From assembly GCF_018977255.1 (NCBI RefSeq), contig NW_024704742.1, forward strand, positions 37,820,001-37,884,000: a stretch of DNA of 64,000 nt, written 5' to 3'. The notes below the pieces were generated by a model. That model was not told where the DNA came from. It worked only from the letters and a program-made list of their open reading frames with translations, and ran no database searches. The translations under genes were made by a program, and so were the position numbers. Source of the stretch: Callorhinchus milii (lineage: Eukaryota). Below are positions 1 to 48,400 of the stretch, one piece after another. The number at the start of each line of letters is the position of its first letter. The first letter of the stretch is position 1.

Positions 1-281
1 TCCCTGGCTTGGGAGAGTTCATGCTTCTGACTGACTCTCTTGCCCCATTGGAACCTGAGCATGGTCACAAGATGTCAGGTAATTTTAGGGTCAGCCTTAT
101 CACAAGATTGGTCTGGATTGACAACAATCACTCTCGCTCTCAAGGCTCACTCACAAAGAATGAGCACTAATGGAGATGGAGGAAGGTAACTGGTGCCTAT
201 AGAACTGTAACCCAGCAAAGGATCACCTGAAAACAACAAAACAACAACAACAAGATAGCATTTATAGAGCGCCATTCAGCG

Positions 282-367
282 CCTTGCAGGGACCGGCCCT
301 TGCAGGGACCGGCCCTTGCAGGGACCGGCCCTTGCAGGGACCGGCCCTTGCAGGGACCGGCCCTTGC
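282..367. repeat. 16-bp GC-rich minisatellite (CCTTGCAGGGACCGGC)n, 5 units
   Basis: Read directly from the sequence. Confidence 0.97.
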
Positions 368-828
368 AAATCATTTGCTCCTCGCAGAATGATTGATGCA
401 GAAGTACGGGCCTTTGTACTGAAAAATACAAATTAAACTTTACAACAATAGTACTTGTGAGGGTTGGGTTAAACTCATTTTAAAATGTCAGCATCAATTT
501 ATACCTCACTTTTAGAAATCAGAATCTAGATCCCTTTTTCAATCACAAACATTGTGTGCACTGCTCCTGAATGAACAATACCTATTGCTTATATACTGTT
601 ATGCAAAGCAATATTCATTGCCGACTTAAACCAGGAATAGATGTGACAGTTCTACTTTCATCAGCAAACTGCTTAGATTATATTTATATGCACAACAAAA
701 TTAATCTGCATCTGTGCAGTCAATATAAAAAAAATTCAACCCCATTACAATCCCAACACCTTTTTCAATTCTGCAACACTAACAGTAACATTACAAGATA
801 CTACACTGTATACATTGGAGATAATTTT

Positions 829-958
829 TTATGTTCAGCTAATGCATTACTGAGAAGACATCAGCAAGGTCTTCAGTCACACAAGGCTGAATATTCTCTA
901 TCCCAAGCGTACAACTGCTCATGCCACAGATATTAGCAGGGCAGCAAATAAATGGGAG
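829..958 (-). ncRNA. SNORA20: H/ACA box snoRNA SNORA20 (ACA20), copy 1
   Basis: Minus strand reads CUCCCAUUUAUUUGCUGC...GAGCAGUUGUACGCUUGGGAU, close to the recalled human ACA20 5' hairpin. H box AGAGAA follows, then a second hairpin (UUCAGC...GCUGA) and ACA + 3 nt. It lies in a TCP1 intron, the known host of SNORA20. Confidence 0.88.
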
Positions 959-1311
959 TTCAGTAAGTTGTACATGTTTTTCTTACTTTTTAACAAGTAT
1001 CAGTTCATCATCGCATATCCTTTCTTGAACCACCTCCTCAGCTTGGCCCACTAAAGAGGGATCAAAACTCTCATCTCCTTCCAAGTTTGCAAGAGTTGAA
1101 CAGATAGTTGCTATAAACAAAAACAGGTAAAAATCATCAGAATAGGTTTCTCAGTCCAAGACACCCTTTTCTGATTTACGGACTTTTAACACTTCAACAA
1201 AATTACATTTGTATAGCGCCTTTCATGTCGGGAGGACGTCAGAATCACTAGGAAAATTCCAGCTGATTCCGAATGCCAACCTTTCAAAATTGAATGACAT
1301 TAATATTGGAC

Positions 1312-1792
1312 ATTAAACTCGATAGCTTGTCACTCCAAGGGTAAAGAGCTGAGCAATAAGTTATCCGGAGTAGCGAGTTTGATAAAGGTCCTCCCAGCTG
1401 CTCCGTGGCTTTTGGCCCTATCCTGTCACACGATAAGATGTAAGACAGCGTAGCAGGCCTCTGCAACGCATCTGAGCATAGGCACCCAACCTCCGCTACC
1501 AATCACAGCATCGGGCTGGAGGCCTTTGTAATGCAAGATGCCATATTACAGAACGAGTTATCAGATCAATTTTCGACTAAGAAGATAGCGAATAAGCTAT
1601 TTTCTGCTCGCTGGATTCAAACAATCTGAGTCAGTCATAGTGGCTATCACTAGCCATTATGAATGTCAGCACAGACAGAGGCTACTCAGTGCACCATTGA
1701 TCCGCGCTAGGAGTTGGGCCCACAGAATAAAATTAATGTTTTTGGTTTTGGGCCTCGTCCAACCAGGTCGGAATTCCGGATAACTGGAGTCC
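1312..1792. mobile_element. Possible degraded pogo/Tigger-type MITE inside the TCP1 intron (present in all four units)
   Basis: CpG-richer than flanks. Perfect 11-bp inverted repeat AGTTATCCGGA (1359-1369) / TCCGGATAACT (1775-1785). Left end AAACTCGATAGC...CTCCAAGGG resembles pogo-like subterminal motifs from memory. Confidence 0.3.
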
Positions 1793-1926
1793 AATAAGGC
1801 AGGGGATCACTAGTTTGAAAGTATGTATAATTCAAAACAGTAACCTAGTAAAAAAAATTGCTGCACTTACCTCCACTGGCCTTAACAATTCGTCTGAGGT
1901 CTTTCTTCAGACAACGGCGTAATGCC

Positions 1927-1973
1927 CTGCAGGGACCTGCGCTGCAGGGACCTGCGCTGCAGGGACCTGCCCT
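1927..1973. repeat. 15-bp repeat (CTGCAGGGACCTGCG)x3 at the TCP1 5' breakpoint; also at 5726-5772, 8683-8729, 11544-11590
   Basis: Read directly; it abuts the truncated TCP1 exon. Confidence 0.93.
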
Positions 1974-3158
1974 ACATCCTCCCATCACAGCATCAAGCTA
2001 ATTCTAAATATATCCAATATATCAAGCAGGAAGTACATCATCCAACCCCAGGAACTCTAAATTTAGAGTAGAGTTCCAACAGATATCTACGATTATCATA
2101 GATATACCTTTGGTCACTGGAAAAAAGTTCCCACTTTATTTCCTAAAACTAGTTTGTCCTAAAAATATAATAAATTTGAACTTGTAAAAAATATATAGGG
2201 ATGGAAATGTTTTCATACCATAAATAATCGCCCAAATAATTGTTGCATTTGATATAGTGGTTAGAACACTGAAACATCTCAAAGCACTTCACATATAATT
2301 GCTGTCAAATGTAATGACTGTATATTTGTAAATAGTTGCAACATCCTTCTGACACAGAGACAAGATTGCTACCAACTGAGCTCAGTTGACAAATAATAAA
2401 TAGAGGCCAGAAATGTTTTTAAGTTTTGGTACAGAATTCTTTGAAAGTAAAGTAACTATTGTAATTACTTTACAGGAATAAAGCTACTCCTGAGAGTTTA
2501 AATAATTATAATATTCCTTGCATTTGATATCATGCCTTTCATGTCGGGAGGTTGTCACAAAGCGTTTCACAGGATTTATTTTAAAGTATAGTGACTGAAC
2601 TGAGATCTCGAGAGCAGCTGGCAGTCAAATGACAAAGAATGGAAAACAGGTATTTAAAAACCAAAGTCAGATGATGCTCTAACGGCCCACTGGGTAAAAG
2701 TACCAACTGCCGTAGCATTAAACCTTGCATTTGATATAGTGCATTTAATATAGAATCTCAGGAATGTCACAAGTTTGATCTCAATAAGAACTACTCCGAG
2801 ATGCAATACCATGCGAAGGCTGCTATGTAAATGCAGGTTGTTGTTGTTGCTTTGGGTTATTATGACTGGTCTCAGAGTCCCTGGCTTGGGAGAGTTCATG
2901 CTTCTGACTGACTCTCTTGCCCCATTGGAACCTGAGCATGGTCACAAGATGTCAGGTAATTTTAGGGTCAGCCTTATCACAAGATTGGTCTGGATTGACA
3001 ACAATCACTCTCGCTCTCAAGGCTCACTCACAAAGAATGAGCACTAATGGAGATGGAGGAAGGTAACTGGTGCCTATAGAACTGTAACCCAGCAAAGGAT
3101 CACCTGAAAACAACAAAACAACAACAACAAGATAGCATTTATAGAGCGCCATTCAGCG

Positions 3159-4166
3159 CCTTGCAGGGACCGGCCCTTGCAGGGACCGGCCCTTGCAGGG
3201 ACCGGCCCTTGCAGGGACCGGCCCTTGCAGGGACCGGCCCTTGCAGGGACCGGCCCTTGCAGGGACCGGCCCTTGCAGGGACCGGCCCTTGCAGGGACCG
3301 GCCCTTGCGGGGACCGGCCCTTGCTGGGACCGGCCCTTGCAGGGACCGGCCCTTGCTGGACCGGCCCTTGCTGGGACCGGCCCTTGCTGGGACCGGCCCT
3401 TGCTGGGACCGGCCCTTGCTGGGACCGGCCCTTGCTGGGACCGGCCCTTGCTGGGACCGGCCCTTGCTGGGACCGGCCCTTGCTGGGACCGGCCCTTGCT
3501 GGGACCGGCCCTTGCTGGGACCGGCCCTGCTGGGACCGGCCCTGCTGGGACCGGCCCTGCAGGGACCGGCCCTTGCGGGACCGGCCCTTGCAGGGACCGG
3601 CCCTTGCAGGGACCGGCCCTTGCAGGGACCGGCCCTTGCAGGGACCGGCCCTTGCAGGGACCGGCCCTTGCAGGGACCGGCCCTTGCAGGGACCGGCCCT
3701 TGCAGGGACCGGCCCCTGCAGGACCGGCCCTTGCAGGGACCGGCCCTTGCAGGGACCGGCCCTTGCAGGGACCGGCCCTTGCTGGGACCGGCCCTTGCTG
3801 GGACCGGCCCTTGCTGGGACCGGCCCTTGCTGGGACCGGCCCTTGCTGGGACCGGCCCTTGCTGGGACCGGCCCTTGCTGGGACCGGCCCTTGCTGGGAC
3901 CGGCCCTTGCTGGGACCGGCCCTTGCTGGGACCGGCCCTTGCTGGGACCGGCCCTTGCTGGGACCGGCCCTTGCTGGGACCGGCCCTTGCTGGGACCGGC
4001 CCTTGCTGGGACCGGCCCTTGCTGGGACCGGCCCTTGCAGGGACCGGCCCTTGCAGGGACCGGCCCTTGCAGGGACCGGCCCTTGCAGGGACCGGCCCTT
4101 GCAGGGACCGGCCCTTGCAGGGACCGGCCCTTGCAGGGACCGGCCCTTGCAGGGACCGGCCCTTGC
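3159..4166. repeat. 16-bp minisatellite, about 62-63 units with A/T/G variant blocks
   Basis: Read directly. Units are TTGCAGGG, TTGCTGGG or TTGCGGGG variants, with a few 15-bp units. Confidence 0.97.
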
Positions 4167-5725
4167 AAATCATTTGCTCCTCGCAGAATGATTGATGCAG
4201 AAGTACGGGCCTTTGTACTGAAAAATACAAATTAAACTTTACAACAATAGTACTTGTGAGGGTTGGGTTAAACTCATTTTAAAATGTCAGCATCAATTTA
4301 TACCTCACTTTTAGAAATCAGAATCTAGATCCCTTTTTCAATCACAAACATTGTGTGCACTGCTCCTGAATGAACAATACCTATTGCTTATATACTGTTA
4401 TGCAAAGCAATATTCATTGCCGACTTAAACCAGGAATAGATGTGACAGTTCTACTTTCATCAGCAAACTGCTTAGATTATATTTATATGCACAACAAAAT
4501 TAATCTGCATCTGTGCAGTCAATATAAAAAAAATTCAACCCCATTACAATCCCAACACCTTTTTCAATTCTGCAACACTAACAGTAACATTACAAGATAC
4601 TACACTGTATACATTGGAGATAATTTTTTATGTTCAGCTAATGCATTACTGAGAAGACATCAGCAAGGTCTTCAGTCACACAAGGCTGAATATTCTCTAT
4701 CCCAAGCGTACAACTGCTCATGCCACAGATATTAGCAGGGCAGCAAATAAATGGGAGTTCAGTAAGTTGTACATGTTTTTCTTACTTTTTAACAAGTATC
4801 AGTTCATCATCGCATATCCTTTCTTGAACCACCTCCTCAGCTTGGCCCACTAAAGAGGGATCAAAACTCTCATCTCCTTCCAAGTTTGCAAGAGTTGAAC
4901 AGATAGTTGCTATAAACAAAAACAGGTAAAAATCATCAGAATAGGTTTCTCAGTCCAAGACACCCTTTTCTGATTTACGGACTTTTAACACTTCAACAAA
5001 ATTACATTTGTATAGCGCCTTTCATGTCGGGAGGACGTCAGAATCACTAGGAAAATTCCAGCTGATTCCGAATGCCAACCTTTCAAAATTGAATGACATT
5101 AATATTGGACATTAAACTCGATAGCTTGTCACTCCAAGGGTAAAGAGCTGAGCAATAAGTTATCCGGAGTAGCGAGTTTGATAAAGGTCCTCCCAGCTGC
5201 TCCGTGGCTTTTGGCCCTATCCTGTCACACGATAAGATGTAAGACAGCGTAGCAGGCCTCTGCAACGCATCTGAGCATAGGCACCCAACCTCCGCTACCA
5301 ATCACAGCATCGGGCTGGAGGCCTTTGTAATGCAAGATGCCATATTACAGAACGAGTTATCAGATCAATTTTCGACTAAGAAGATAGCGAATAAGCTATT
5401 TTCTGCTCGCTGGATTCAAACAATCTGAGTCAGTCATAGTGGCTATCACTAGCCATTATGAATGTCAGCACAGACAGAGGCTACTCAGTGCACCATTGAT
5501 CCGCGCTAGGAGTTGGGCCCACAGAATAAAATTAATGTTTTTGGTTTTGGGCCTCGTCCAACCAGGTCGGAATTCCGGATAACTGGAGTCCAATAAGGCA
5601 GGGGATCACTAGTTTGAAAGTATGTATAATTCAAAACAGTAACCTAGTAAAAAAAATTGCTGCACTTACCTCCACTGGCCTTAACAATTCGTCTGAGGTC
5701 TTTCTTCAGACAACGGCGTAATGCC
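4167..5725 (-). pseudogene. TCP1: TCP1 fragment, copy 2 (exon pieces 5670-5725, 4786-4909, 4167-4217)
   Basis: Same sequence as copy 1, offset +3799. Confidence 0.92.
4628..4757 (-). ncRNA. SNORA20: SNORA20 copy 2
   Basis: Same sequence as copy 1. Confidence 0.87.
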
Positions 5726-6957
5726 CTGCAGGGACCTGCGCTGCAGGGACCTGCGCTGCAGGGACCTGCCCTACATCCTCCCATCACAGCATCAAGCTAA
5801 TTCTAAATATATCCAATATATCAAGCAGGAAGTACATCATCCAACCCCAGGAACTCTAAATTTAGAGTAGAGTTCCAACAGATATCTACGATTATCATAG
5901 ATATACCTTTGGTCACTGGAAAAAAGTTCCCACTTTATTTCCTAAAACTAGTTTGTCCTAAAAATATAATAAATTTGAACTTGTAAAAAATATATAGGGA
6001 TGGAAATGTTTTCATACCATAAATAATCGCCCAAATAATTGTTGCATTTGATATAGTGGTTAGAACACTGAAACATCTCAAAGCACTTCACATATAATTG
6101 CTGTCAAATGTAATGACTGTATATTTGTAAATAGTTGCAACATCCTTCTGACACAGAGACAAGATTGCTACCAACTGAGCTCAGTTGACAAATAATAAAT
6201 AGAGGCCAGAAATGTTTTTAAGTTTTGGTACAGAATTCTTTGAAAGTAAAGTAACTATTGTAATTACTTTACAGGAATAAAGCTACTCCTGAGAGTTTAA
6301 ATAATTATAATATTCCTTGCATTTGATATCATGCCTTTCATGTCGGGAGGTTGTCACAAAGCGTTTCACAGGATTTATTTTAAAGTATAGTGACTGAACT
6401 GAGATCTCGAGAGCAGCTGGCAGTCAAATGACAAAGAATGGAAAACAGGTATTTAAAAACCAAAGTCAGATGATGCTCTAACGGCCCACTGGGTAAAAGT
6501 ACCAACTGCCGTAGCATTAAACCTTGCATTTGATATAGTGCATTTAATATAGAATCTCAGGAATGTCACAAGTTTGATCTCAATAAGAACTACTCCGAGA
6601 TGCAATACCATGCGAAGGCTGCTATGTAAATGCAGGTTGTTGTTGTTGCTTTGGGTTATTATGACTGGTCTCAGAGTCCCTGGCTTGGGAGAGTTCATGC
6701 TTCTGACTGACTCTCTTGCCCCATTGGAACCTGAGCATGGTCACAAGATGTCAGGTAATTTTAGGGTCAGCCTTATCACAAGATTGGTCTGGATTGACAA
6801 CAATCACTCTCGCTCTCAAGGCTCACTCACAAAGAATGAGCACTAATGGAGATGGAGGAAGGTAACTGGTGCCTATAGAACTGTAACCCAGCAAAGGATC
6901 ACCTGAAAACAACAAAACAACAACAACAAGATAGCATTTATAGAGCGCCATTCAGCG

Positions 6958-7123
6958 CCTTGCAGGGACCGGCCCTTGCAGGGACCGGCCCTTGCAGGGA
7001 CCGGCCCTTGCAGGGACCGGCCCTTGCAGGGACCGGCCCTTGCAGGGACCGGCCCTTGCAGGGACCGGCCCTTGCAGGGACCGGCCCTTGCAGGGACCGG
7101 CCCTTGCAGGGACCGGCCCTTGC
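6958..7123. repeat. 16-bp minisatellite, 10 units
   Basis: Read directly; 96 bp longer than the 4-unit copy. Confidence 0.97.
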
Positions 7124-8682
7124 AAATCATTTGCTCCTCGCAGAATGATTGATGCAGAAGTACGGGCCTTTGTACTGAAAAATACAAATTAAACTTTACA
7201 ACAATAGTACTTGTGAGGGTTGGGTTAAACTCATTTTAAAATGTCAGCATCAATTTATACCTCACTTTTAGAAATCAGAATCTAGATCCCTTTTTCAATC
7301 ACAAACATTGTGTGCACTGCTCCTGAATGAACAATACCTATTGCTTATATACTGTTATGCAAAGCAATATTCATTGCCGACTTAAACCAGGAATAGATGT
7401 GACAGTTCTACTTTCATCAGCAAACTGCTTAGATTATATTTATATGCACAACAAAATTAATCTGCATCTGTGCAGTCAATATAAAAAAAATTCAACCCCA
7501 TTACAATCCCAACACCTTTTTCAATTCTGCAACACTAACAGTAACATTACAAGATACTACACTGTATACATTGGAGATAATTTTTTATGTTCAGCTAATG
7601 CATTACTGAGAAGACATCAGCAAGGTCTTCAGTCACACAAGGCTGAATATTCTCTATCCCAAGCGTACAACTGCTCATGCCACAGATATTAGCAGGGCAG
7701 CAAATAAATGGGAGTTCAGTAAGTTGTACATGTTTTTCTTACTTTTTAACAAGTATCAGTTCATCATCGCATATCCTTTCTTGAACCACCTCCTCAGCTT
7801 GGCCCACTAAAGAGGGATCAAAACTCTCATCTCCTTCCAAGTTTGCAAGAGTTGAACAGATAGTTGCTATAAACAAAAACAGGTAAAAATCATCAGAATA
7901 GGTTTCTCAGTCCAAGACACCCTTTTCTGATTTACGGACTTTTAACACTTCAACAAAATTACATTTGTATAGCGCCTTTCATGTCGGGAGGACGTCAGAA
8001 TCACTAGGAAAATTCCAGCTGATTCCGAATGCCAACCTTTCAAAATTGAATGACATTAATATTGGACATTAAACTCGATAGCTTGTCACTCCAAGGGTAA
8101 AGAGCTGAGCAATAAGTTATCCGGAGTAGCGAGTTTGATAAAGGTCCTCCCAGCTGCTCCGTGGCTTTTGGCCCTATCCTGTCACACGATAAGATGTAAG
8201 ACAGCGTAGCAGGCCTCTGCAACGCATCTGAGCATAGGCACCCAACCTCCGCTACCAATCACAGCATCGGGCTGGAGGCCTTTGTAATGCAAGATGCCAT
8301 ATTACAGAACGAGTTATCAGATCAATTTTCGACTAAGAAGATAGCGAATAAGCTATTTTCTGCTCGCTGGATTCAAACAATCTGAGTCAGTCATAGTGGC
8401 TATCACTAGCCATTATGAATGTCAGCACAGACAGAGGCTACTCAGTGCACCATTGATCCGCGCTAGGAGTTGGGCCCACAGAATAAAATTAATGTTTTTG
8501 GTTTTGGGCCTCGTCCAACCAGGTCGGAATTCCGGATAACTGGAGTCCAATAAGGCAGGGGATCACTAGTTTGAAAGTATGTATAATTCAAAACAGTAAC
8601 CTAGTAAAAAAAATTGCTGCACTTACCTCCACTGGCCTTAACAATTCGTCTGAGGTCTTTCTTCAGACAACGGCGTAATGCC
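7124..8682 (-). pseudogene. TCP1: TCP1 fragment, copy 3 (exon pieces 8627-8682, 7743-7866, 7124-7174)
   Basis: Same sequence as copy 1, offset +6756. Confidence 0.92.
7585..7714 (-). ncRNA. SNORA20: SNORA20 copy 3
   Basis: Same sequence as copy 1. Confidence 0.87.
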
Positions 8683-9914
8683 CTGCAGGGACCTGCGCTG
8701 CAGGGACCTGCGCTGCAGGGACCTGCCCTACATCCTCCCATCACAGCATCAAGCTAATTCTAAATATATCCAATATATCAAGCAGGAAGTACATCATCCA
8801 ACCCCAGGAACTCTAAATTTAGAGTAGAGTTCCAACAGATATCTACGATTATCATAGATATACCTTTGGTCACTGGAAAAAAGTTCCCACTTTATTTCCT
8901 AAAACTAGTTTGTCCTAAAAATATAATAAATTTGAACTTGTAAAAAATATATAGGGATGGAAATGTTTTCATACCATAAATAATCGCCCAAATAATTGTT
9001 GCATTTGATATAGTGGTTAGAACACTGAAACATCTCAAAGCACTTCACATATAATTGCTGTCAAATGTAATGACTGTATATTTGTAAATAGTTGCAACAT
9101 CCTTCTGACACAGAGACAAGATTGCTACCAACTGAGCTCAGTTGACAAATAATAAATAGAGGCCAGAAATGTTTTTAAGTTTTGGTACAGAATTCTTTGA
9201 AAGTAAAGTAACTATTGTAATTACTTTACAGGAATAAAGCTACTCCTGAGAGTTTAAATAATTATAATATTCCTTGCATTTGATATCATGCCTTTCATGT
9301 CGGGAGGTTGTCACAAAGCGTTTCACAGGATTTATTTTAAAGTATAGTGACTGAACTGAGATCTCGAGAGCAGCTGGCAGTCAAATGACAAAGAATGGAA
9401 AACAGGTATTTAAAAACCAAAGTCAGATGATGCTCTAACGGCCCACTGGGTAAAAGTACCAACTGCCGTAGCATTAAACCTTGCATTTGATATAGTGCAT
9501 TTAATATAGAATCTCAGGAATGTCACAAGTTTGATCTCAATAAGAACTACTCCGAGATGCAATACCATGCGAAGGCTGCTATGTAAATGCAGGTTGTTGT
9601 TGTTGCTTTGGGTTATTATGACTGGTCTCAGAGTCCCTGGCTTGGGAGAGTTCATGCTTCTGACTGACTCTCTTGCCCCATTGGAACCTGAGCATGGTCA
9701 CAAGATGTCAGGTAATTTTAGGGTCAGCCTTATCACAAGATTGGTCTGGATTGACAACAATCACTCTCGCTCTCAAGGCTCACTCACAAAGAATGAGCAC
9801 TAATGGAGATGGAGGAAGGTAACTGGTGCCTATAGAACTGTAACCCAGCAAAGGATCACCTGAAAACAACAAAACAACAACAACAAGATAGCATTTATAG
9901 AGCGCCATTCAGCG

Positions 9915-9984
9915 CCTTGCAGGGACCGGCCCTTGCAGGGACCGGCCCTTGCAGGGACCGGCCCTTGCAGGGACCGGCCCTTGC
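9915..9984. repeat. 16-bp minisatellite, 4 units
   Basis: Read directly from the sequence. Confidence 0.97.
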
Positions 9985-11543
9985 AAATCATTTGCTCCTC
10001 GCAGAATGATTGATGCAGAAGTACGGGCCTTTGTACTGAAAAATACAAATTAAACTTTACAACAATAGTACTTGTGAGGGTTGGGTTAAACTCATTTTAA
10101 AATGTCAGCATCAATTTATACCTCACTTTTAGAAATCAGAATCTAGATCCCTTTTTCAATCACAAACATTGTGTGCACTGCTCCTGAATGAACAATACCT
10201 ATTGCTTATATACTGTTATGCAAAGCAATATTCATTGCCGACTTAAACCAGGAATAGATGTGACAGTTCTACTTTCATCAGCAAACTGCTTAGATTATAT
10301 TTATATGCACAACAAAATTAATCTGCATCTGTGCAGTCAATATAAAAAAAATTCAACCCCATTACAATCCCAACACCTTTTTCAATTCTGCAACACTAAC
10401 AGTAACATTACAAGATACTACACTGTATACATTGGAGATAATTTTTTATGTTCAGCTAATGCATTACTGAGAAGACATCAGCAAGGTCTTCAGTCACACA
10501 AGGCTGAATATTCTCTATCCCAAGCGTACAACTGCTCATGCCACAGATATTAGCAGGGCAGCAAATAAATGGGAGTTCAGTAAGTTGTACATGTTTTTCT
10601 TACTTTTTAACAAGTATCAGTTCATCATCGCATATCCTTTCTTGAACCACCTCCTCAGCTTGGCCCACTAAAGAGGGATCAAAACTCTCATCTCCTTCCA
10701 AGTTTGCAAGAGTTGAACAGATAGTTGCTATAAACAAAAACAGGTAAAAATCATCAGAATAGGTTTCTCAGTCCAAGACACCCTTTTCTGATTTACGGAC
10801 TTTTAACACTTCAACAAAATTACATTTGTATAGCGCCTTTCATGTCGGGAGGACGTCAGAATCACTAGGAAAATTCCAGCTGATTCCGAATGCCAACCTT
10901 TCAAAATTGAATGACATTAATATTGGACATTAAACTCGATAGCTTGTCACTCCAAGGGTAAAGAGCTGAGCAATAAGTTATCCGGAGTAGCGAGTTTGAT
11001 AAAGGTCCTCCCAGCTGCTCCGTGGCTTTTGGCCCTATCCTGTCACACGATAAGATGTAAGACAGCGTAGCAGGCCTCTGCAACGCATCTGAGCATAGGC
11101 ACCCAACCTCCGCTACCAATCACAGCATCGGGCTGGAGGCCTTTGTAATGCAAGATGCCATATTACAGAACGAGTTATCAGATCAATTTTCGACTAAGAA
11201 GATAGCGAATAAGCTATTTTCTGCTCGCTGGATTCAAACAATCTGAGTCAGTCATAGTGGCTATCACTAGCCATTATGAATGTCAGCACAGACAGAGGCT
11301 ACTCAGTGCACCATTGATCCGCGCTAGGAGTTGGGCCCACAGAATAAAATTAATGTTTTTGGTTTTGGGCCTCGTCCAACCAGGTCGGAATTCCGGATAA
11401 CTGGAGTCCAATAAGGCAGGGGATCACTAGTTTGAAAGTATATATAATTCAAAACAGTAACCTAGTAAAAAAAATTGCTGCACTTACCTCCACTGGCCTT
11501 AACAATTCGTCTGAGGTCTTTCTTCAGACAACGGCGTAATGCC
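9985..11543 (-). pseudogene. TCP1: TCP1 fragment, copy 4 (exon pieces 11488-11543, 10604-10727, 9985-10035)
   Basis: Same sequence as copy 1, offset +9617, with an intronic SNP at 11442. Confidence 0.92.
10446..10575 (-). ncRNA. SNORA20: SNORA20 copy 4
   Basis: Same sequence as copy 1. Confidence 0.87.
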
Positions 11544-12018
11544 CTGCAGGGACCTGCGCTGCAGGGACCTGCGCTGCAGGGACCTGCCCTACATCCTCCC
11601 ATCACAGCATCAAGCTAATTCTAAATATATCCAATATATCAAGCAGGAAGTACATCATCCAACCCCAGGAACTCTAAATTTAGAGTAGAGTTCCAACAGA
11701 TATCTACGATTATCATAGATATACCTTTGGTCACTGGAAAGAGTTCCCACTTTATTTCCTAAAACTAGTTTGTCCTAAAAATATAATAAATTTGAACTTG
11801 TAAAAAATATATAGGGATGGAAATGTTTTCATACCATAAATAATCGCCCAAATAATTGTTGCATTTGATATAGTGGTTAGAACACTGAAACATCTCAAAG
11901 CACTTCACATATAATTGCTGTCAAATGTAATGACTGTATATTTGTAAATAGTTGCAACATCTTTCTGACACAGAGACAAGATTGCTACCAACTGAGCTCA
12001 GCTGACAAATAATAAATA

Positions 12019-12570
12019 TTATTATTAATAATAATAATGCCTGCCCTGCCGGGGCCTGCCCTGCCGGGACCTGCCCTGTTTCAGTGGCCTGCAGAGTTCG
12101 GCGATGTTACGGAGGTGAGGGAAGGCAGAGCGGGTCATGGCTTGAATGTGGGGAAGAAGAGAGTTGAGGGTCGAACAAGACACCCAGGTTCCTGACTGGC
12201 TGGTGAGTTGTAGTGTGCAACCATGGAGGTTGATGCTGCCAGAGCCTGAGGTGCTGAGGTGCTGGCGCGAACCAATCAGGAGGGCCTCAGTCTTGTTCAC
12301 ATTCAACTGTAGGAAATTTACCCTCATCCAGGACTTGATGTTCGACAGACAGTCTGTCAGGACAGCAGTGGTCCTGGAGTTGAGGGTGGAGGCAGAAAGA
12401 TAGAGTTGGGTGTCATCCGCATACACGTGGAAGTTGACCCCATGTCTGCGGATGATGTCACCAAGGGGGAGCATGTTGATATTTAAGAGGAGAGGGCCAA
12501 GGACAGAGCCCTGGGGGACGCCAGACGTGACAGTGCGGGGGCTGGAGGAGAAACCGTTAGAGGCAACAAA
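12019..12570 (-). mobile_element. L2-clade LINE reverse transcriptase fragment, joined to an (ATT)n tail through a GC-rich 15-bp repeat (12039-12078)
   Basis: Minus strand encodes [13 protein letters not shown] and [27 protein letters not shown]...[23 protein letters not shown] (RT YADD motif, L2-type context), with frameshifts. Confidence 0.9.
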
Positions 12571-12819
12571 GACATGTTCAGACGAAGAAGGTCCTTCAGC
12601 CCATTTGATCTCACCCTTTCAGAATACTCACCTGACTGTTTTCCATTCACTTTACAGTATGATTGTGAAGTGCTTTGATACGTCTCAATGACGTAATAAG
12701 GCTCTATATCAAATGGAAGGATTATTATTATTTAGGTACAGACAACGATAATCCTTGCATTTGATACAGCACCTGATCATGTCTTCTCGATGCCTGAAAG
12801 CGCTTCACAGAACGTGCTG

Positions 12820-13900
12820 CAAAGCCAATCGAACCGATATTTCGCGGGCGAAATGAAACCCGGCAGCCCTCGGCGCGCAGCGAGCGGCGGCTCTCGAAGC
12901 GACCGAATTATCGTCGCCGACGTCCTCGAAGGGACCACTCGACGAGCACCTGGGCAGCCCAAATCCACCCCCGGAACGAGAAAAAAAAAAGACCCGCGCT
13001 CGCTCGTCGACCGAGAAAGGCGTTCGGTGCGAGACGAGCGCAGCCTGTGGGGTTGTCCTTTTTTTTTCGGTGGGTGGGTGGGTGGGGGTGACTCAGAAAT
13101 TGCAAATTTCTCCCCCCCCCCACCACCCCACAAAAAAAAAGGGACTGTGATGACCTGGCCTGAGCCGGCTACCTGCCACTTTGGCTGCAGATGGGAAGCA
13201 GGTGGAGAGGGCAGTGTTGGGGGGTTGGGCTGCAGTTGGAGCTGTGAGTGGTTGGGTTTGGGGTTGGGTTTGGGGGTGGAGGCGGCGGCTCTACACACAC
13301 AGCGCAGCAGCAGCAGCAGAAGGCGCAGCCACCACAGCCCGCAATGGCAGCGGAGTCTCGCAGCGGAGAGCCGGGCGTGTTGCTGGAGGAGCTCCTGGCC
13401 ATGGCCGCGGCCGGCGGCGTGTGGGCAGCCCTGTCCCTGGGAGTCCTGGTGGCTCTGGCCACTTGGGGCTGGTTCAAGGCGAGCAGGAAGGGCAGCGGCC
13501 CGAGCAGCCCCGACCTTCCCAGCCAGAGCGGCGCTGCGGCCACGGTCACCGCAGGTCAGGGATGGGATGGGAGGGGGGGGGTTTCGGGGGGTGTCAGCGG
13601 GTTTTACTGGTGAAACCTAATTTAAAAAAAATCAATTGGGTTTGTCTGGTTTTTGTTTGGCTGACTTTTCTCAGGGGTTGGGTGGGTGGTGTGGGGGGTG
13701 GCGGTCGGTACCGATAATCCCTGATAATAATAATAATATTGTTATCAATAAATTGAATGTTAATAATAATTCGGTCACTTGGATTTCTTCGGCCGCTGTT
13801 TGTGGGACGCTGCTGCGCGAGCCACTGGCCGCCGTGTTTCGCCCCCTCAAAGTACGCGGTCAGCTCACGCGACGGTGCGTTCTGTGAGGCGCTTCGAGAC
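12820..13900. promoter_or_regulatory. CpG island / promoter region of STBD1
   Basis: Sharp rise in GC and CpG content around the first coding exon, against an AT-rich CpG-poor background. Confidence 0.7.
13344..13554 (+). CDS. STBD1: STBD1 coding exon 1
   Basis: gcaATGG start context; ends GCAG|gtcagg, phase 1. The downstream ATG (MAAAGG) is an alternative start. Confidence 0.8.
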
Positions 13901-16193
13901 GGCTTAATGATGTGATGTCAAATGCAAGAATTATTATTATTATTATTATTAATATCATTATTGGGGCTGTGCTCCCACTTGTCCTGAAGTAACCTTTCCC
14001 TCCACACCGCCAATGTTTCAATTGAATTCAAGAATCAATTAGTTCTTTTATTTGTAGAACACATTTTTTATGCGACTGTGCTTGTTCAGCTCCTGTCACG
14101 TCGGGAGGACTTTTATTTGCACCACAAATGTCTAATTTTATCTGGTTGTTTCCTACAGCCTTCTTTTAAGTTTTTTTTGTGACCAGGTATGTATATTGTA
14201 CAATTTGGAGTTATTCTCAAGGTTTGGTGTTTAAAAACTAATCTGAACGAAGTGATTCTTCAATCAGATTGCTCAAGGGTGCCATTGAATGAATTGGCAA
14301 TGTGTATCCTGCTTTGTTACAATTTAGCCTACAATTTCTATACAGAAAGTTCAGTGATTTTACTGATACGAGAATATATCTCCCTCTCATCAAATGTTCT
14401 TCAGAATATTTGGGTTGATCTGGAGCTCTTTGAATTGCCCCCCAATTGAGCCCAAAGTTTACTCTTAATTTCTGCATTTTGGGCACTGTTAATAGTGTGA
14501 TCTAGATATGTAAGAGTACAAATTGAGCAAAGCCTGAATCCCGATTGAACTTTGAGATTACCTTGCATACACAGCATGCACTTTTCCAGTTATCAGTAAC
14601 CTTTTGGTATTTTGGGCTGTTTTTCTGCGATGGAAAGTTGGAAACCTTTACATTGACGTGAAAAGGTGCCACATCAAATGTTGTTATTATTGGCAGTTGC
14701 ACATTGTTTTATTTAGAATTGTAAGTGCTGCCCTAATGGCTTCACCTTGGGTTTAGATGAACTGACTATTGTACAGTATTTTGCTCCCAAGTTTCCAGAA
14801 GGTCATGTCCTGCACTGGAAGGGATTACATTATCTGCACATGTTGAACTGATCTATGTTTAGTTAATGATTGAGGATTTGTACATCTGATTCACAACTGC
14901 AGTGGAGTGGGTGGGGGGCAGTCAAACCAAAGTAAGCCCTAAGGTAGATCTTGCTGCCAAGAAAATAACAGCTGTGTCTCCATTTCCACTGAAGAGAATT
15001 GTGGTGAAATTTCTCGCAACTTCATTTTTCTGTAGTCTAATCATTTTTGGCAATTTAAAAAAATTAAGTTACATCTTATTTTTATAGTTTGCTTAAGTAT
15101 CCTGGGAATAGAGTTCCATTCCAGTCCACGTAAATGGATTTTCAGAGTAATTTGGAAATGACTAGCTGTAGTTTATCCTTGTTCAGGCAGTGGTCACAAT
15201 GTTTCCATCTGCTAACAATTTGACAGAACAAAGCAAAATTTGAGAATTTAAAAATTCATTCTATTTCCTACAGATGAAAAAGGGGGTGATCTAACCAAAG
15301 TGAATGAACTGGGAGCCAGTGTACCAGAGTCTCCAGTCAAAGCTGTTTCTTCATGTCTGGATGATATTTCGGACATCCGTGAAATAACTGGGAATTGCAG
15401 TGACAATCTTGTTCCTGTAATATCCAATGAGGACCTGTGCGATAGTGAACAGGTTTGTATCCCTCTGTCTGAAGATGATCCGAAGCAGTCTCAGCCTTTC
15501 AAGAATTTTATGACCAACTCATCCAGTATTGGGAAAGATCCTAACCATTGCATTGGAACCACTGAACAGAATTCTAAGGAAGAAGGGAATTATGAAAACA
15601 AAAATCAAACTGAACATTGTCAAAAGCTACATGAGTGTTCTGTTTTAAAGGATGAAGATTTAGACCATAAATATCAGTCTGAATCAGGATGTCTAAGTAA
15701 TGAAACGTTCGATATTGATAACAGCAACGATAACAATTCTGACCTACCTAAAGAGCCTACACTTCTAACTGAAATGACTAAAGATGATGAAGAATGGGAA
15801 ATCTTAGAAGAGCCGAACACCTTGGAGGTGGAAACCAAAGTAAGCCCTGAGATAGATCATGCTGCCAAGAAAATAGCAGCTGTGTCTCCATTGCCACTGA
15901 AGATCATTGTGGTGAAATTTCAAGTACACTACGTGACTGAATTGGAATCTCAAATTCTTGCAGTGATGGGAAACCATGAGCATTTGGGTCAGTGGGAAAA
16001 TTATGTGCCCCTGAAACCAGGCAAGGATGGCTTCTGGTCTGGTTCTGTTCTGCTCCCAATGAATTCCAAGATTGAGTGGAAGTTTGTTATGGTGGAAAAT
16101 GGAAAAGTCAGGCGATGGGAGGAATGCTTGAACAGATGTCTGGAGACTAGCCATGAAGATATAGCTGTACATCGTTGTTGGGGTTTCCAATAA
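13344..16193 (+). CDS. STBD1: Starch-binding domain-containing protein 1 (glycophagy receptor), join(13344..13554,15274..16193), 376 aa
   Basis: N-terminal hydrophobic anchor (VWAALSLGVLVALATWGWF), phase-1 GT-AG intron, LIR/AIM motif DEEWEIL, C-terminal CBM20 (VKFQVHYVT...VMGNHEHLGQWENYVPL...IEWKFVMVENGKVRRWEECLNR). Two-exon structure and adjacency to CCDC158 match the known vertebrate locus. Confidence 0.95.
14924..15013 (+). repeat. 90-bp diverged intronic copy of STBD1 exon 2 segment 15832-15921
   Basis: Translates TKVSPKVDLAAKKITAVSPFPLKRIVVKF versus TKVSPEIDHAAKKIAAVSPLPLKIIVVKF, with no indels. Confidence 0.9.
15274..16193 (+). CDS. STBD1: STBD1 coding exon 2 (LIR + CBM20)
   Basis: Acceptor ctatttcctacag|AT, in frame with ORF 15300-16193. 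Confidence 0.95.
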
Positions 16194-30405: not shown

Positions 30406-30436
<31 letters not shown>

Positions 30437-33400
30437 TCCTTGCATTTGATATAGCGCTTTTCACATCAGGAGGACGTCCCAAAGCGCTTCACAGAACATA
30501 CTGTAAAGTGTATTGACTGTATATTTGTGGGCGAACGCGGCAGCCAATTGCGCACAGCAATGTCCCACAAACAGTCATGGATTGAAAATGACCAATTTAT
30601 TATTGTTTTGGGTTTTGGAGGGATTATTATTAGGCGTGTGGAGTAAGGAAACTTGCCCAAGGTTTCGCCCTGCCTGGAATTGAACTCAGGTCTCTAGCTT
30701 GCAAAGCGAGTGCTCAACCACTGAGCTACAGGACTCCATAATAGTATGGAATTCCCCCTTCACCACCCTCCCGATATAAGAAACTGAATAAATCCACTGA
30801 AACAAACAAAATATAATAATATAATAATAATAATCCTTGCATTTGATATAGCGCTTTTCACGTCGGGAGGACGTCCCAAAGCGCTTCACAGAACATACTG
30901 TAAAGTGAATTGACTGTATATTTGTGGGCGAACGCGGCAGCCAATTGCGCACAGCAATGTCCCACAAACAGTCATGGATTGAAAATGACCAATTTATTAT
31001 TGTTTTTGGTTTTGGAGGGATTATTATTAGGCTCTGTGTGGAGTAAGGAAACTTGCCCAAGGTTTCGCCCTCTGCCTGGAATTGAATTCAGGTCTCTCGC
31101 TTGCAAAGCGAGTGCTCAACCACTGAGCTACAGGACTCCATAATAGTATGGAATTCCCCCTTCACCACCCTCCCGATATAAGAAATTGAATAAATCCACT
31201 GAAACAAACAAAATATGTGTTTTAAACATACCTTAAACTTAAATTATTGCAAGACAAAATGTTTGCATTTCGATATCCATTGTTTCGAACTTATTAACAG
31301 GTCATCAAAGAGTTAGTACAAATCAAGAACTCTGCACTGGGTTGTAAACACGCTACAGCATGTTACCAAAATACAAAATCATAGAGGGTTTTGAAAATAC
31401 TTTCACTGAAACACTGAAACTGAATACAATACACAGAAATTGTATTTAGCTGTCTCCAGTGGAAGAGCTTACACCAGCATGCATTTGATGCACTGAACAG
31501 TCAACGGCTATGCTGCAATTTCTATGATTCATTTATGTGACTGGTGCTGTTGGCAAAGATGCAGCACCTGGGTGGACAGAGAGGGAGGGGCTTCTCATAT
31601 GTGAAGGAAGAGAAAGTCAAGTGGGTTCCAGTACAAATGGTTCTTTAAGGGACAGGCGATCCTCTGCTAGGTTTCTCACTCCCCCTCCCCCAGCTGCACG
31701 ACTTAACTACAACAATATGTGAAGTACAAGGGTGATGGTCTTTTACAAAAAAACTTTGACAACGTTTGGTTTCAGAGTTAAAACTGGTGGAGGTTACCTT
31801 CTCCAGAGTGGTCTCTACTTTGATCAGTCGTTCCCGCAAACGCTTTTCCTGACATTTCATAACGTCAAGCTCTGCAGCAATTTTGTTCCTTTCTGATACT
31901 AAGCAAGAGAGTTCTTTCGTCAGCCGAACCTTCTCTTCTTTCAAATAACATTTCTCCTAACGTAAAAGCAGAAGTGGGTTAAAGGACCAAAGGAATCACA
32001 AATCTAATGCGTGTGTGTGTGTGGGGAGAGGAGAGGAAAGGGGGAGAGGAAGCGACATATCTTGATGTGCACAGGATCCAGAAAAATCCAGTAGATTTGT
32101 CTAAATTCCAATTTAATTCCTTAACAAGGTCAATCACTCATCACTGGTAAATATTTTAAGTATTGTGTTACTAGTAATTAAAAAAAATGAAAGCATCAGT
32201 AGGAAGGTTTAGCACACTGATTAAACTCATCGTCAAGTTTAGTAGACGAACATATGGCTAACTTGGGTGCAACTCCACTAAGGTCAAGCAATAGCTTCAC
32301 ACCCAGTTTCAGCAGACTAATATATTGCTAACCTGGGTGCACTCCACTAAGGTCAAGCAATGGATTAATAGTATCTGCCTCTCTACCAGCTGCTCTGGAG
32401 TGCTGTATTGCTATCCTGTTTATAGACCGGTGGCAACATTTTTAAAAATATAATCCTCATTAAGTTACACTGTTCTCAACTACTATACAACATGAAAACA
32501 GACTCAGCAAAAGACCCTTATTGGAGATCAATTGCACAAGACTGAACAGCCACAAGTAGACCTTCTCTGGACTTAAGCAGAAGACATTAGGTTGCATTAG
32601 TTATTGACTTGCATTAAACATTAGTCTTCTGGGCGTTATTGAATGATTGCCCTCAAAAGATAGGAATTCATTTGAGATGAATGAAGCATTGCAAGTCTAG
32701 ATACTTTGAATGGACAGCACCTTCCTTACAGAACTGCACTTTCAGCCCTTCATGACTGCAAGCAAATGGCACCTGAATAAATGGTGACATTATTACTATG
32801 ATTATAGTAACTTTACTTCCCCTTCCGAAAGAGATTTAATTGTTCCGTAACTAGAAGTGTTGAAATGTCAAGATATTGGAGTATCAGAAACTTTCACAAG
32901 GAATAAAATTTTAAACCATTATAGCCAAAAAATCCCCCACAAAATTCAGCGAAACAATTATAGTCCACACATTGAATAATAAATTTCAATATCATTATTT
33001 CAAATAGGATACATATTTTTGCATCACAAACATAGTGGGATATCTAGTGCTTATCTTAGACATTTTAGTTATATATTACCAAATATTATTTGAGCACATG
33101 AATAAATAGGTGTTCCAGAAATGACCAAACATTTTGTGATATTTTCTGCATCTAAAATTAAACATTACTTCAGGATGTAGTTATGAACCTGTATTAGATG
33201 CAGCAAATATCAAAGTGTCAATAAAAATAGTATCTCTAACCTTGATTTAGTACCTAAAAACGTGAAACCAACCAATGGGTTTGGCTGAATCAGAGCCAGT
33301 CCTTCTAAGGCTTTTGGCTGCCATTGAAGCCACAGGTTTGACCTGCCAAAAGCAGCTGACTGAGTGCTCAAATTAACCCACTGGCCTGTAGATACACGCG

Positions 33401-45400: not shown

Positions 45401-48400
45401 GGAAGTAGAAATTACAACAACAACAACAAGATTCCATTTATAAAGCGCCTTTCACGTCAGGAGGACGTCCCAAGGCGCTGCACAGTTGGGTCATGACCCG
45501 AGCAGGGGGGAAATGGTCAGGGTGAGGGGAGGGAAGGGAGGGAGCGAGGAGGGGGGAAATGGTCAGGGTGAGGGGAGGGAAGGGAGGGAGCGAGGAGGGG
45601 GGAAATGGTCAGGGTGAGGGGAGGGAAGGGAGGGAGCGAGGAGGGGGAAGAGAGTCGAGAGGGGAGCTGAAGGCTCGGTCAAAGAGAAAGGTTTTGAGAC
45701 CGGCCTTGAAGGAGGAAAGGGAGGAAGCAAGGCGAAGGCACTGGGGGATGGAGTTCCAGAGCCTGGGGGCTGAGAGGCTGAAGGCCCGACCACCGATGGT
45801 AGGGCGGTTGGGGCGGGGGACGTGGAGCAGACCGGAGCCAGAGGAACGGAGGGTACGGGCAGGTAGGTAGGGGGATAGTAGGTCGGAGAGGTAGGAGGGA
45901 GCAAGGCCGTGAATGGCCTTGTAGGTGAGGATGAGGATCTTGAAATCAATCCTCTGGGGGATGGGGAGCCAGTGGAGGCGAGCGAGGGTGGGAGTGATGT
46001 GGTCCCGAAGCCTGGTGCGGGACAGTACACGAGCTGCAGAGTTCTGGATGACCTGCAGCTTGTGGAGGGAGGTGACGGGAAGGCCGGCGAGGAGAGAGAG
46101 AGAGAGAGTCAGGTGGGATTACAACAACAACTTGCATTTATATAGCATAGTTCTGTTCAGGAGTCTATGCAATTCTGTCCTCCAAAGAGTCCATAAATCA
46201 GAACTATACTTCATCCAATCCCACGCTTATTCACAAGTGTCTCAGGTTACCTGGGCTCATGCCATCTGTCAAGAACAATAGACATGCTTATGTTGATATC
46301 ATGTTGATAGCATCATACACGCAAAAAATCGCTTGAGTTGTTGATTTCAGCTTCATTTTTAAATCTTTGAGAGCAGGGGTTGCTCATCTAATGCTCTTCC
46401 TACCACCATCCCCTACCCCTCCAGTCATTCTTCAGGACCAGCAGATGAAAATGTGCAATAGCTTCTGCCCACCATAGGAATTCATTCATCTTTTCAGCTT
46501 ATAGCAGAACACTTGATTGTAATGTTTAGCATCTGTTCCTGGGGGATGACCGCCCCAGTGAAGATCAGTAATAATGAATCAATAGTTCCATGATCATGGG
46601 TGATGCAGCAGAGCAACATGGTATGCTGAATAAATTGCCCCATGAATTGTTTCATCTCCCATTTCCTATATGTTCCTAATCTTGTTCATGTAGCCAAAAG
46701 AGTTTTACTGGGCTGAAATCAGAGGCCTCGCCATAGAGAGTAAGGGGTAAGAAAAAAAAGGAGCCCAAAGCGTATAGATTGAGGATACAAACCTCTTCAG
46801 ATGCCCTCTTCCAGAGGCAAGTATTGAATAGGTAAGAAGAAAATTACCTTTCGTGTTGTTGTTTAAGCAAATATTCGGTTTTGCTATTCGTTTCAGATTT
46901 CAGGGAATTCAACTGATCCTCCATCTAAAAACAAATAACAGAGAACGAGATTTTATTTTTGTCTATGATTTTGTAACTTGCGAAGTGATTTCCACACAGC
47001 ATTGGTGAGCCACAGCATAAATCTACTGTAAACATGGCTGAAGCTTTTTTTAAAAAAAGGACAACATTCCTATATTTGCCACCAATTCATAAATTCGCCT
47101 GTCAATAACAAACTGTGTAAGCATGATAGCTCCATGGATGTGACAGTAAGGTGCCCAAACCAGATCAAGCTGAATTTGATTTACAGTCTGTATTGTTAAC
47201 TGGTCTCAGCCCTGGTGGAGGGGAGGGACAGAAAATAATATAATTGGTGTCCTCTACCAATGGTGAGAAAACCAGCTAAGACTCCTGATCCCAAACACCA
47301 TCTGGGGGACCACGACTACTACAAGATACAAAGCTACCGCGCTGCTTTGCAGAACTAAAGCAAGAAAGGCATCACACTTGTGAAATGGTATAGAAATTGA
47401 AAACTGATCCCTACATCTACAATTTCACACCACTAATACGGGGTTCTCTCCCAGAGTATGCCAGCACTAACCGTTTAGGCAATAACACTTTCAATTATGT
47501 AAACTCTGCATTGTTTTTTATTATCCCATGCTTCTACGAAAGGGGACACCAAGAACAGTTCCAGGCAACCCAAAGTGCTTATATCAGAAACCATTGTAAA
47601 GCAAAGAGACCATTAGTCACTTACTGGACAAATTCTTGCTTTGAGGCAAGCGATATCACCTTCCAAGTCCCTCAGGACTTTTCCCACCGCTGTACCCATG
47701 TTCTGCACATGAATGTTGCAGATGTTTTCGTGTTCATACACCTTCTTGCCAGTGTTCTCTTCGTACCCCATTAGCGACTGTCGAATTTCGTTCAGCACAC
47801 CATCAAATACTTGGGCCTTTTTCCTCAGTTGCTCAATCTGACAGTTGGCATCTCTGACAGTCTCATCTTGCATCCGATTCACGGTCTCAAGGTCCTGAAC
47901 AGCGGTGTGCAGTTTGTTTATCAGTTCTCCGTGGTCCTGGCTCTCTTTTAGTCTGAAATATAATCCATACCTCCACTAATTTCAGCAATGGTTTCGGCAA
48001 GGTTCCATTAATCCTTAACCTGCCTATTCACTGATTTCTACTGTATTCAAGTGGATTTTCAGGTTTTCAGCAGGCTGAAGGTTAATATGTTCAAATCAAT
48101 ACCGGGCAAACAGACAAATGCATCACATTAAACTAGAGCTAAACAGAATCCTAGTGACTCAATGCTTCAAAAGATTTCCCACACGCAGCAAGCTCTCATC
48201 TGGGCAGCTATGCTGTGGGAAAATTCTCAGCAGAAACCAGGAGCTCCCACACAAGGAGGAAAGAAAACAATCACAGAGCCACTTGCTTTGTGATACTCTG
48301 CGTCTCCTAGCGGCTTGCAATAAAACAGCAATGATAGATGGCTGCGAACAATCATCTCAGTACCAGGCCAATACATATATGTATTTTGGGGAGGTGAAGA

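Follow-up and report, generated by a model that had tools for sequence, protein, structure and literature searches.

A GC-rich 15/16-bp repeat at break points of TCP1 fragments in the elephant shark Callorhinchus milii

Short GC-rich repeats at the edges of duplicated DNA are best known from primates, where segmental duplications with CAGGG and other GC-rich repeats were reportedly described by Eichler, Archidiacono and Rocchi in 1999; the CAGGG repeat forms long arrays of a short CAGGG-based unit. Hypervariable GC-rich minisatellites offer a further class for comparison. Here we describe three related GC-rich 15/16-bp tandem arrays, called m1, m2 and m3, which lie at breaks in exons of TCP1 and in an L2 open reading frame (ORF) within 64,000 nucleotides of the Callorhinchus milii genome (assembly GCF_018977255.1, contig NW_024704742.1, positions 37,820,001 to 37,884,000; hereafter the window). 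Predicted proteins of some dispersed TCP1 fragments of this species show the same motif at further break points.

The TCP1 case resembles the primate duplications, as presented in three reports (PMC2566985; PMC5088589; PMC9132208), in its intron-containing fragments on several chromosomes, its mosaic structure, the GC-rich repeats at or near junctions and the repeated re-use of one duplicon. These reports mention core duplicons whose integration points are marked by satellite repeats (PMC5088589) and break points provided by SVA elements (PMC9132208). The TCP1 case differs in that its arrays mostly count 3-10 units of a 15/16-bp quasi-palindrome, stand exactly at mid-exon breaks and on both sides of the fragment, and occur in a holocephalan. 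Moreover, the primate CAGGG repeat is a pentamer and the TCP1 motif is not (its periods of 15 and 16 led us to reject the CAGGG repeat proper).

Three other systems come close. The extra nucleotides at L2 and L1 5' junctions and the L1-bridged rearrangements (PMC4245944, PMC10760644) likewise have sequence of non-flank origin where a broken end meets a retroelement tail, with unrelated flanks; however, those nucleotides are largely flank-derived and form no single recurring tandem motif, whereas the TCP1 case keeps its introns and other tails here are motif-free. Helitron or Helentron capture (PMC12001565) shares repeated capture of gene pieces, tandem arrays and an association with minisatellites, but the Xenopus captures involve mostly 5' gene ends and a 166-bp unit, and no Helitron termini were seen here. 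Finally, the 16-bp unit, the range of 4 to about 63 copies and the blocks of variant repeats are those of hypervariable minisatellites, unlike which the short members here mark rearrangement junctions. The open-access literature gave no description of the motif or of elephant shark TCP1 dispersal among the matches listed, although the motif may be contained in the repeat libraries of published supplements, and six motif strings retrieved one unrelated paper only. The motif at TCP1 breaks is a real and apparently undescribed feature.

Three related arrays within one composite

All three array types lie within one 2.2-kb composite beside STBD1 and not at separate loci. Read on the minus strand, the composite consists of an L2 fragment, m3, an (ATT)n run, a segment A, m2, TCP1 residues 310-386 with two introns, m1, an L2-type tail with (GTT)n and a segment C. 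Head-to-tail copies of the part from A to C, four within the window, form a minus-strand tandem array (1..12018; units of about 2.9 kb at 9159-12018, 6202-9158, 2403-6201 and 1-2402) that runs off the window. Because the composite is tandemly amplified, m1 and m2 recur, with four occurrences each. Apart from m1, three of the tandem units have the same sequence; the first departs from them at 5 sites, all within its initial 578 bases. The motif occupies three of the four internal junctions of the composite and array; the C-to-A junction (9159/9158) and the other junctions from unit to unit (2403/2402 and equivalents) are free of it.

The m3 array (12039..12094, minus strand), at the 5' edge of the composite, comprises about 2.7 regular 15-bp units (12039-12078) and a degenerate upstream unit to 12094. 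It separates an L2-type ORF2 reverse transcriptase fragment (12095..12590, minus strand, 5' limit approximate; Pfam RVT_1, E=1e-14), which we assign to L2 from conserved peptides, from the (ATT)n/(AAT)n run (12008..12038, minus strand), inside which the tandem unit starts at 12018. This ORF2 fragment is broken at both ends and has the motif at its 3' break only. Segment A (11591..12018, minus strand) holds an old SINE-like piece and has no TCP1 coding match; it is the source of the ATG in chimeric models beginning MGGC.

The m2 array of the first unit (11544..11590, minus strand) stands in place of the exon part upstream of TCP1 residue 310, and its other copies are found at 8679-8726, 5722-5769 and 1923-1973 on the same strand. 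The TCP1 piece that follows includes an exon remnant for residues 310-327 with an intact donor site (11488..11542), the exon for residues 328-368, which is 100% identical to the C. milii TCP1 protein (10606..10727), and a remnant for residues 369-386 broken mid-codon (9985..10035), all on the minus strand; both introns are kept with intact splice sites. One of them contains a SNORA20-like H/ACA snoRNA sequence (829..959, minus strand, in the last unit; 39.7 bits, E=3e-4, short of a gathering score of 60), which, judged by unit identity, has been amplified with the tandem unit to one copy per unit.

The m1 array is the most variable. It counts 4 units and a partial one in the first tandem unit (9915..9984, 16-bp unit), 10 in the second (6958..7124), about 63 in the third (3159..4167) and 5 in the last (282..367), all on the minus strand; the last copy starts at 367 after AAT GAT TT, mid-codon at TCP1 residue 386. 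Blocks of variants make up the long array, with 29 copies of one unit, 26 of a second, 3 of a 15-bp form and 5 singletons. With its short unit and large differences in copy number and variant repeats among near-identical tandem units, m1 fits a hypervariable minisatellite, which bears out the birth of a minisatellite proposed in the earlier sequence-only reading of this stretch. Directly after m1 of the first unit comes an L2-type 3' tail (5-bp stem, 4-nt loop) with (GTT)n (9863..9914, minus strand), followed by segment C, of non-TCP1 sequence (9159..9862, minus strand).

The units of the three arrays, all on the minus strand, are 2-4 cyclic edits apart. Such a distance was reached in 8, 158, 23, 1 and 22 of 4000 composition shuffles for the five pairs compared, and the relatedness exceeds chance. 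Distances are smaller on the same strand than on opposite strands in four of the five pairs (m1 against the C-variant of m3 gives a tie); the polarity is real, yet the units are quasi-palindromic. An edit-distance scan of all 64 kb on both strands (at most 2 edits) confined the units to the m1, m2 and m3 arrays and their tandem copies, apart from one isolated 2-edit match to a 14-mer consensus at 34617. Folded as single-stranded DNA, m1 (z -4.8) and m2 (z -2.8) both do better than shuffles.

The sequence-only reading had placed one motif family, in one orientation, exactly at three unrelated junctions. The exact positions (m1 at 367, m2 at about 1927-1973, m3 at 12039-12078, minus strand) and the common orientation hold, and the random placement that would have spoken against it is not seen in the window, the match at 34617 aside. 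The junctions are not unrelated, since all lie in one composite, and the positions it gave mix first and last tandem copies. Its threefold m2 repeat has three units, of which two read as quoted and the first has GGG for GCG. The classical minisatellite core GGGCAGG that it pointed to is absent from m1 and, at 7 letters only, uninformative; we dropped it.

TCP1 fragments elsewhere and the order of events

In named C. milii models, pieces of TCP1 are spread over at least six scaffolds, and a full-length TCP1 model lies on a 12.7-kb scaffold. The models (RefSeq and UniRef, here P0001-P0005 and P0121-P0142) are 96-99.6% identical over their aligned parts, except P0005, which has no internal exons; most keep the C-terminus and vary at the 5' end. 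Nine of the 18 named models tested contain array-encoded peptides, at four TCP1 positions. Seven (P0003, P0122 and P0126-P0130) share the junction at residue 310, and P0128, the type of the window units, has that at residue 386. At residue 308, P0133 carries an m3-type array in the variant order and register of the window m3, which suggests that both descend from one array. At residue 270, P0139 carries an array in m1-type phase; this residue is probably an exon start, so that the array could lie anywhere upstream. Two break points with the motif (270 and 308) are thus found only outside the window, and the three 5' cases (270, 308 and 310) cluster at one exon. All motif peptides are sense to TCP1, the last word in P0139 fitting antisense too, and the 3' break of P0133 at residue 396 has no motif peptide.

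For these dispersed copies the DNA is deduced from protein in a search keyed on one TCP1 exon, to which intronic junctions are invisible, and one protein cluster listed 15 of its 26 members. Every known motif case is tied to the TCP1 duplicon, but a TCP1-keyed search could show no others. A protein search with P0133 added no named C. milii fragment among the 120 of 344 matches listed. The sense translation of m1 had no match at E<=10 among 8000 candidates of 99-2000 residues. Its antisense translation had 109 matches, with a best identity of 64%; because none was exact, there is no long antisense m1 array among the 50% cluster representatives, these 109 matches not having been examined further.

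Variants within the models order the junctions. Residue 323 is A in P0003 and P0122, whose m2 junction has RAGPC units, and V in P0126-P0130, the window type among them; SAGPC is found in the models with three units. Models with m2 reach the TCP1 C-terminus, except P0122 and P0128. As far as predicted proteins can tell, this shows an order in which m2 was joined to a full 3' part of TCP1, the SAGPC and A323V variants arose, the m1 break at residue 386 followed and tandem amplification came after it. On this order the m2 junction is older than m1 and inherited, so that the two cannot stem from one cDNA; for this reason, and for the introns kept, we rejected a single chimeric cDNA as the source of the entire composite. 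The newest junction, from tandem unit to unit, is without motif.

As an observation in its own right, the 15-bp m2 unit keeps the frame with an upstream ATG (11471-11600, minus strand; P0003 and P0126-P0130). Open chimeric ORFs are accordingly predicted, in which the upstream ATG and m2 are fused to the C-terminal half of TCP1.

Flanks, tails and neighbouring features

The flanks are unrelated at all three arrays. The longest words shared with the retained flanks within 150 bp are only 3-6 nt, in line with the earlier statement that the motif was not obviously copied from next to the breaks. One exception is a 9-10-mer in the degenerate m3 unit (12076-12086) with an inverted match about 150 bases away in segment A; the 10-mer recurs three times in the flank and was treated as weak. 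When aligned with the 50-kb flank, the arrays did no better than 40 shuffles each, and the SINE of the window gave matches of 7-14 nt only. The ends of the composite bear no target-site duplication, the longest shared word being 6 nt and not at the ends.

As had been noticed before, two of the three arrays are directly followed by a retroelement tail, namely the stem-loop with (GTT)n after m1 and (ATT)n only after m3; m2 has none. The tail after m1 resembles that of an L2 copy at about 45410-45490. The motif is not part of SINE or L2 copies within the window, according to the edit scan and alignments, and none of 13 other L2/SINE tail matches there (about 10 of them true-looking tails) has it, nor do the remaining tails and junctions of the 50-kb flank. 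For a 7-mer common to m1 and the tails, the flank has 13 occurrences where 4.3 are expected, and 7 of these 13 are in a tail context. At gathering level, an Rfam scan returned only two tRNA-like SINE heads, and matches of the m1 hairpin were far below threshold. Plasmid records gave 140 weak partial matches to the m3 region, none covering 80% of it.

An STBD1-like gene with a CBM20 domain (13344..16193, plus strand) flanks the composite, with CCDC158 exons further to the right. These neighbours, with their CBM20 and CCDC158 domains, are not the usual ones of TCP1 and show the TCP1 piece to be ectopic. Further repeats were recorded in the window. A 90-bp piece of an STBD1-like coding exon is duplicated in the preceding intron with 92% identity (14924-15013 and 15832-15921). 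Two tRNA-derived SINE copies, 97% identical, stand head to tail at 30415-31216 with about 90 bases in common upstream of each, which suggests a small tandem duplication. The 3' region of an L2 copy contains, just before its tail, a tandem repeat of 46 bp (3.2 copies, 99% identical, 45499-45647). A second GC-rich minisatellite at 62646-63561, close to an N gap and to the start of a GC-rich gene region, repeats a 22-bp unit with C runs of varying length about 43 times; it was rejected as a member of the motif family, not being within 2 edits of the units.

Possible origins of the junction arrays

In the reading we favour, to which we give about an even chance, a hairpin-prone minisatellite that existed beforehand serves a mobile TCP1 segmental duplicon again and again as a hub at which copying switches template. 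The composite would be one descendant of a lineage-specific duplicon, spread at the DNA level and made of the 3' half of TCP1, with a GC-rich quasi-palindromic minisatellite family already in or next to it, possibly 5' of the exon that begins at residue 270. DNA ends that are broken or stalled would repeatedly switch template into and out of this array through short homologies, by microhomology-mediated break-induced replication or Pol-theta-type joining, and each event would leave some units as a link between unrelated sequences. The tandem amplification that came last, free of the motif, was accompanied by slippage that expanded m1. Tails may follow the arrays as the array core resembles a 7-mer common in SINE and L2 tails; since that 7-mer is enriched there, the tails would be explicable without RNA. 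A hub is proposed because the 5' cases cluster, P0133 and m3 look co-descended, m1 and m2 form hairpins and the core matches the tail 7-mer. Indeed, such clustering at one exon is more readily understood from a single array close by than from addition at random. The TCP1 fragments on at least six scaffolds, the kept introns and splice sites, the lack of a target-site duplication and the motif-free flank and tails also speak for this reading. Two features of segmental duplicons are also found, namely interspersed near-identical copies with exon-intron structure (introns seen in the window, copies as models) and a GC-rich repeat at duplication junctions.

Several points weigh against the hub. 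Tails adjoin two of the three arrays, for which chance gives about 0.001 within 5 nt and 0.01 within 40 nt, and all motif cases are sense to the TCP1 and L2 pieces, as an RNA route predicts. m3 folds no better than shuffles (z +0.5), and the left junction of m1 shares about 1 nt with the repeat. m2 and m3 have the same 7-letter end, GGCATTA, where TCP1 has A-V and not A-L, which hints at a donor made of an array plus (ATT)n. The hub also presupposes an array and leaves the first origin of the repeat unexplained.

Simpler routes were rejected. A retrocopy or transduction of TCP1 RNA would not retain two introns with intact splice sites, one with the SNORA20-like sequence; simple target-primed insertion of L2 is at odds with unrelated flanks at three arrays and the missing target-site duplication; and telomerase healing would not give 15/16-bp GC-rich units in place of the telomeric hexamer. 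A link of the arrays to PRDM9 is unlikely because elephant shark PRDM9 is a partial form for which no expression was detected (PMC5519329); the hotspot model was set aside, as this orthologue is without SSXRD and is not rapidly evolving.

The points against the hub are partly those that speak for an unlikely alternative, in which array and tail form the 3' end of a small L2-mobilised retroposon whose cDNA bridged two unrelated broken ends, like L1 pieces at tumour deletions and translocations, with reverse transcription stalling in the GC-rich hairpins. The stem-loop tail with (GTT)n after m1, the (ATT)n after m3, the common 7-nt end of m2 and m3, the uniform sense polarity and the 46-bp tandem repeat just upstream of another L2 tail agree with it, as do the dominance of LINEs and SINEs in the C. 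milii genome (PMC4350176) and the bridging model described for L1 (PMC10760644). However, the 50-kb flank contains no free copy, compared with three within 2.2 kb, none of the 13 other tail matches has the motif, the tails differ between arrays, the introns are kept and a target-site duplication is missing; PMC4245944 also reports L2 extra nucleotides as largely flank-derived, unlike the arrays here. We regard it as distinctly improbable that a rolling-circle transposon (Helitron or Helentron) captured and spread 3' TCP1 DNA and that the arrays are its minisatellites, in an internal or subterminal position. This would suit intron-retaining fragments at many loci, most with the TCP1 C-terminus and variable 5' ends, the head-to-tail array and the hairpin-forming unit, and Xenopus Helitrons are bounded by minisatellites and take up gene pieces repeatedly (PMC12001565). 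But unit and composite ends show neither TC...CTRR termini nor end-pairing inverted repeats (among 25 of 37 inverted pairs listed), in a search that covered these ends, those of a larger duplicon lying outside the window, and the genome is poor in DNA transposons (PMC4350176).

The sequence-only reading had proposed that a shared template may be copied reiteratively at breaks, for example by an L2 reverse transcriptase, a telomerase-like activity or Pol theta. One source, independent TCP1 break points and one polarity stand; the general healing by L2 reverse transcriptase or telomerase-like activity is not supported, in view of the introns kept, the precedence of m2 over m1 and the motif-free tails and junctions, including those between tandem units and the 3' break of P0133. 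Related but different units from events separate in time, short arrays exactly at breaks, fixed polarity and the lack of a template in the flanks agree with copying in trans, by which each array would be newly written at its junction. Against it are the motif-free junctions in the composite and in P0133, the clustering of 5' cases at one exon, the likely common descent of P0133 and m3, and the fact that no template RNA was found (by Rfam, or by window alignments, which were no better than shuffles); we hold it to be very unlikely. That each array arose locally, by Pol-theta templated insertion from now-deleted flanks, with convergence as the cause of likeness, has little to recommend it: at the breaks of m2 and P0133 the native exon reads D-A-G-A-M-A-V, which, judged from protein only, could look like the repeat in its DNA, but m1 and m3 match although they stand at other sequences, and m1-type and m3-type units are repeated elsewhere in P0139 and P0133. 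An artefact of assembly, polishing or adapters is hardly credible. Three tandem units are identical outside m1, and single-unit indels in its long array may be read errors; but the m2 junction recurs in many models with diverged variants, among RefSeq XP_0421 entries and in the UniRef-only A0A4W3GR57, which presumably come from different assemblies, variants in the long m1 array form blocks, the first tandem unit differs at its 5 sites near the array edge, and no plasmid record covers 80% of the m3 region.

How break points are chosen in interspersed segmental duplications and how dispersed minisatellite families are born are open questions that have been studied mostly in primates. At the present locus in a cartilaginous fish, the junctions form a young series that is ordered and resolved to the base pair, and one array is seen in the course of expansion from 4 to about 63 units; the locus also reveals the dispersal of TCP1 fragments with predicted in-frame chimeric ORFs and a snoRNA-like sequence. 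It is a long shot that a retroelement reverse transcriptase or host polymerase of holocephalans copies a GC-rich template in trans onto breaks genome-wide, TCP1 being merely the visible example; if so, repeat linkers of fixed polarity would stitch unrelated sequences together and later grow into minisatellites.

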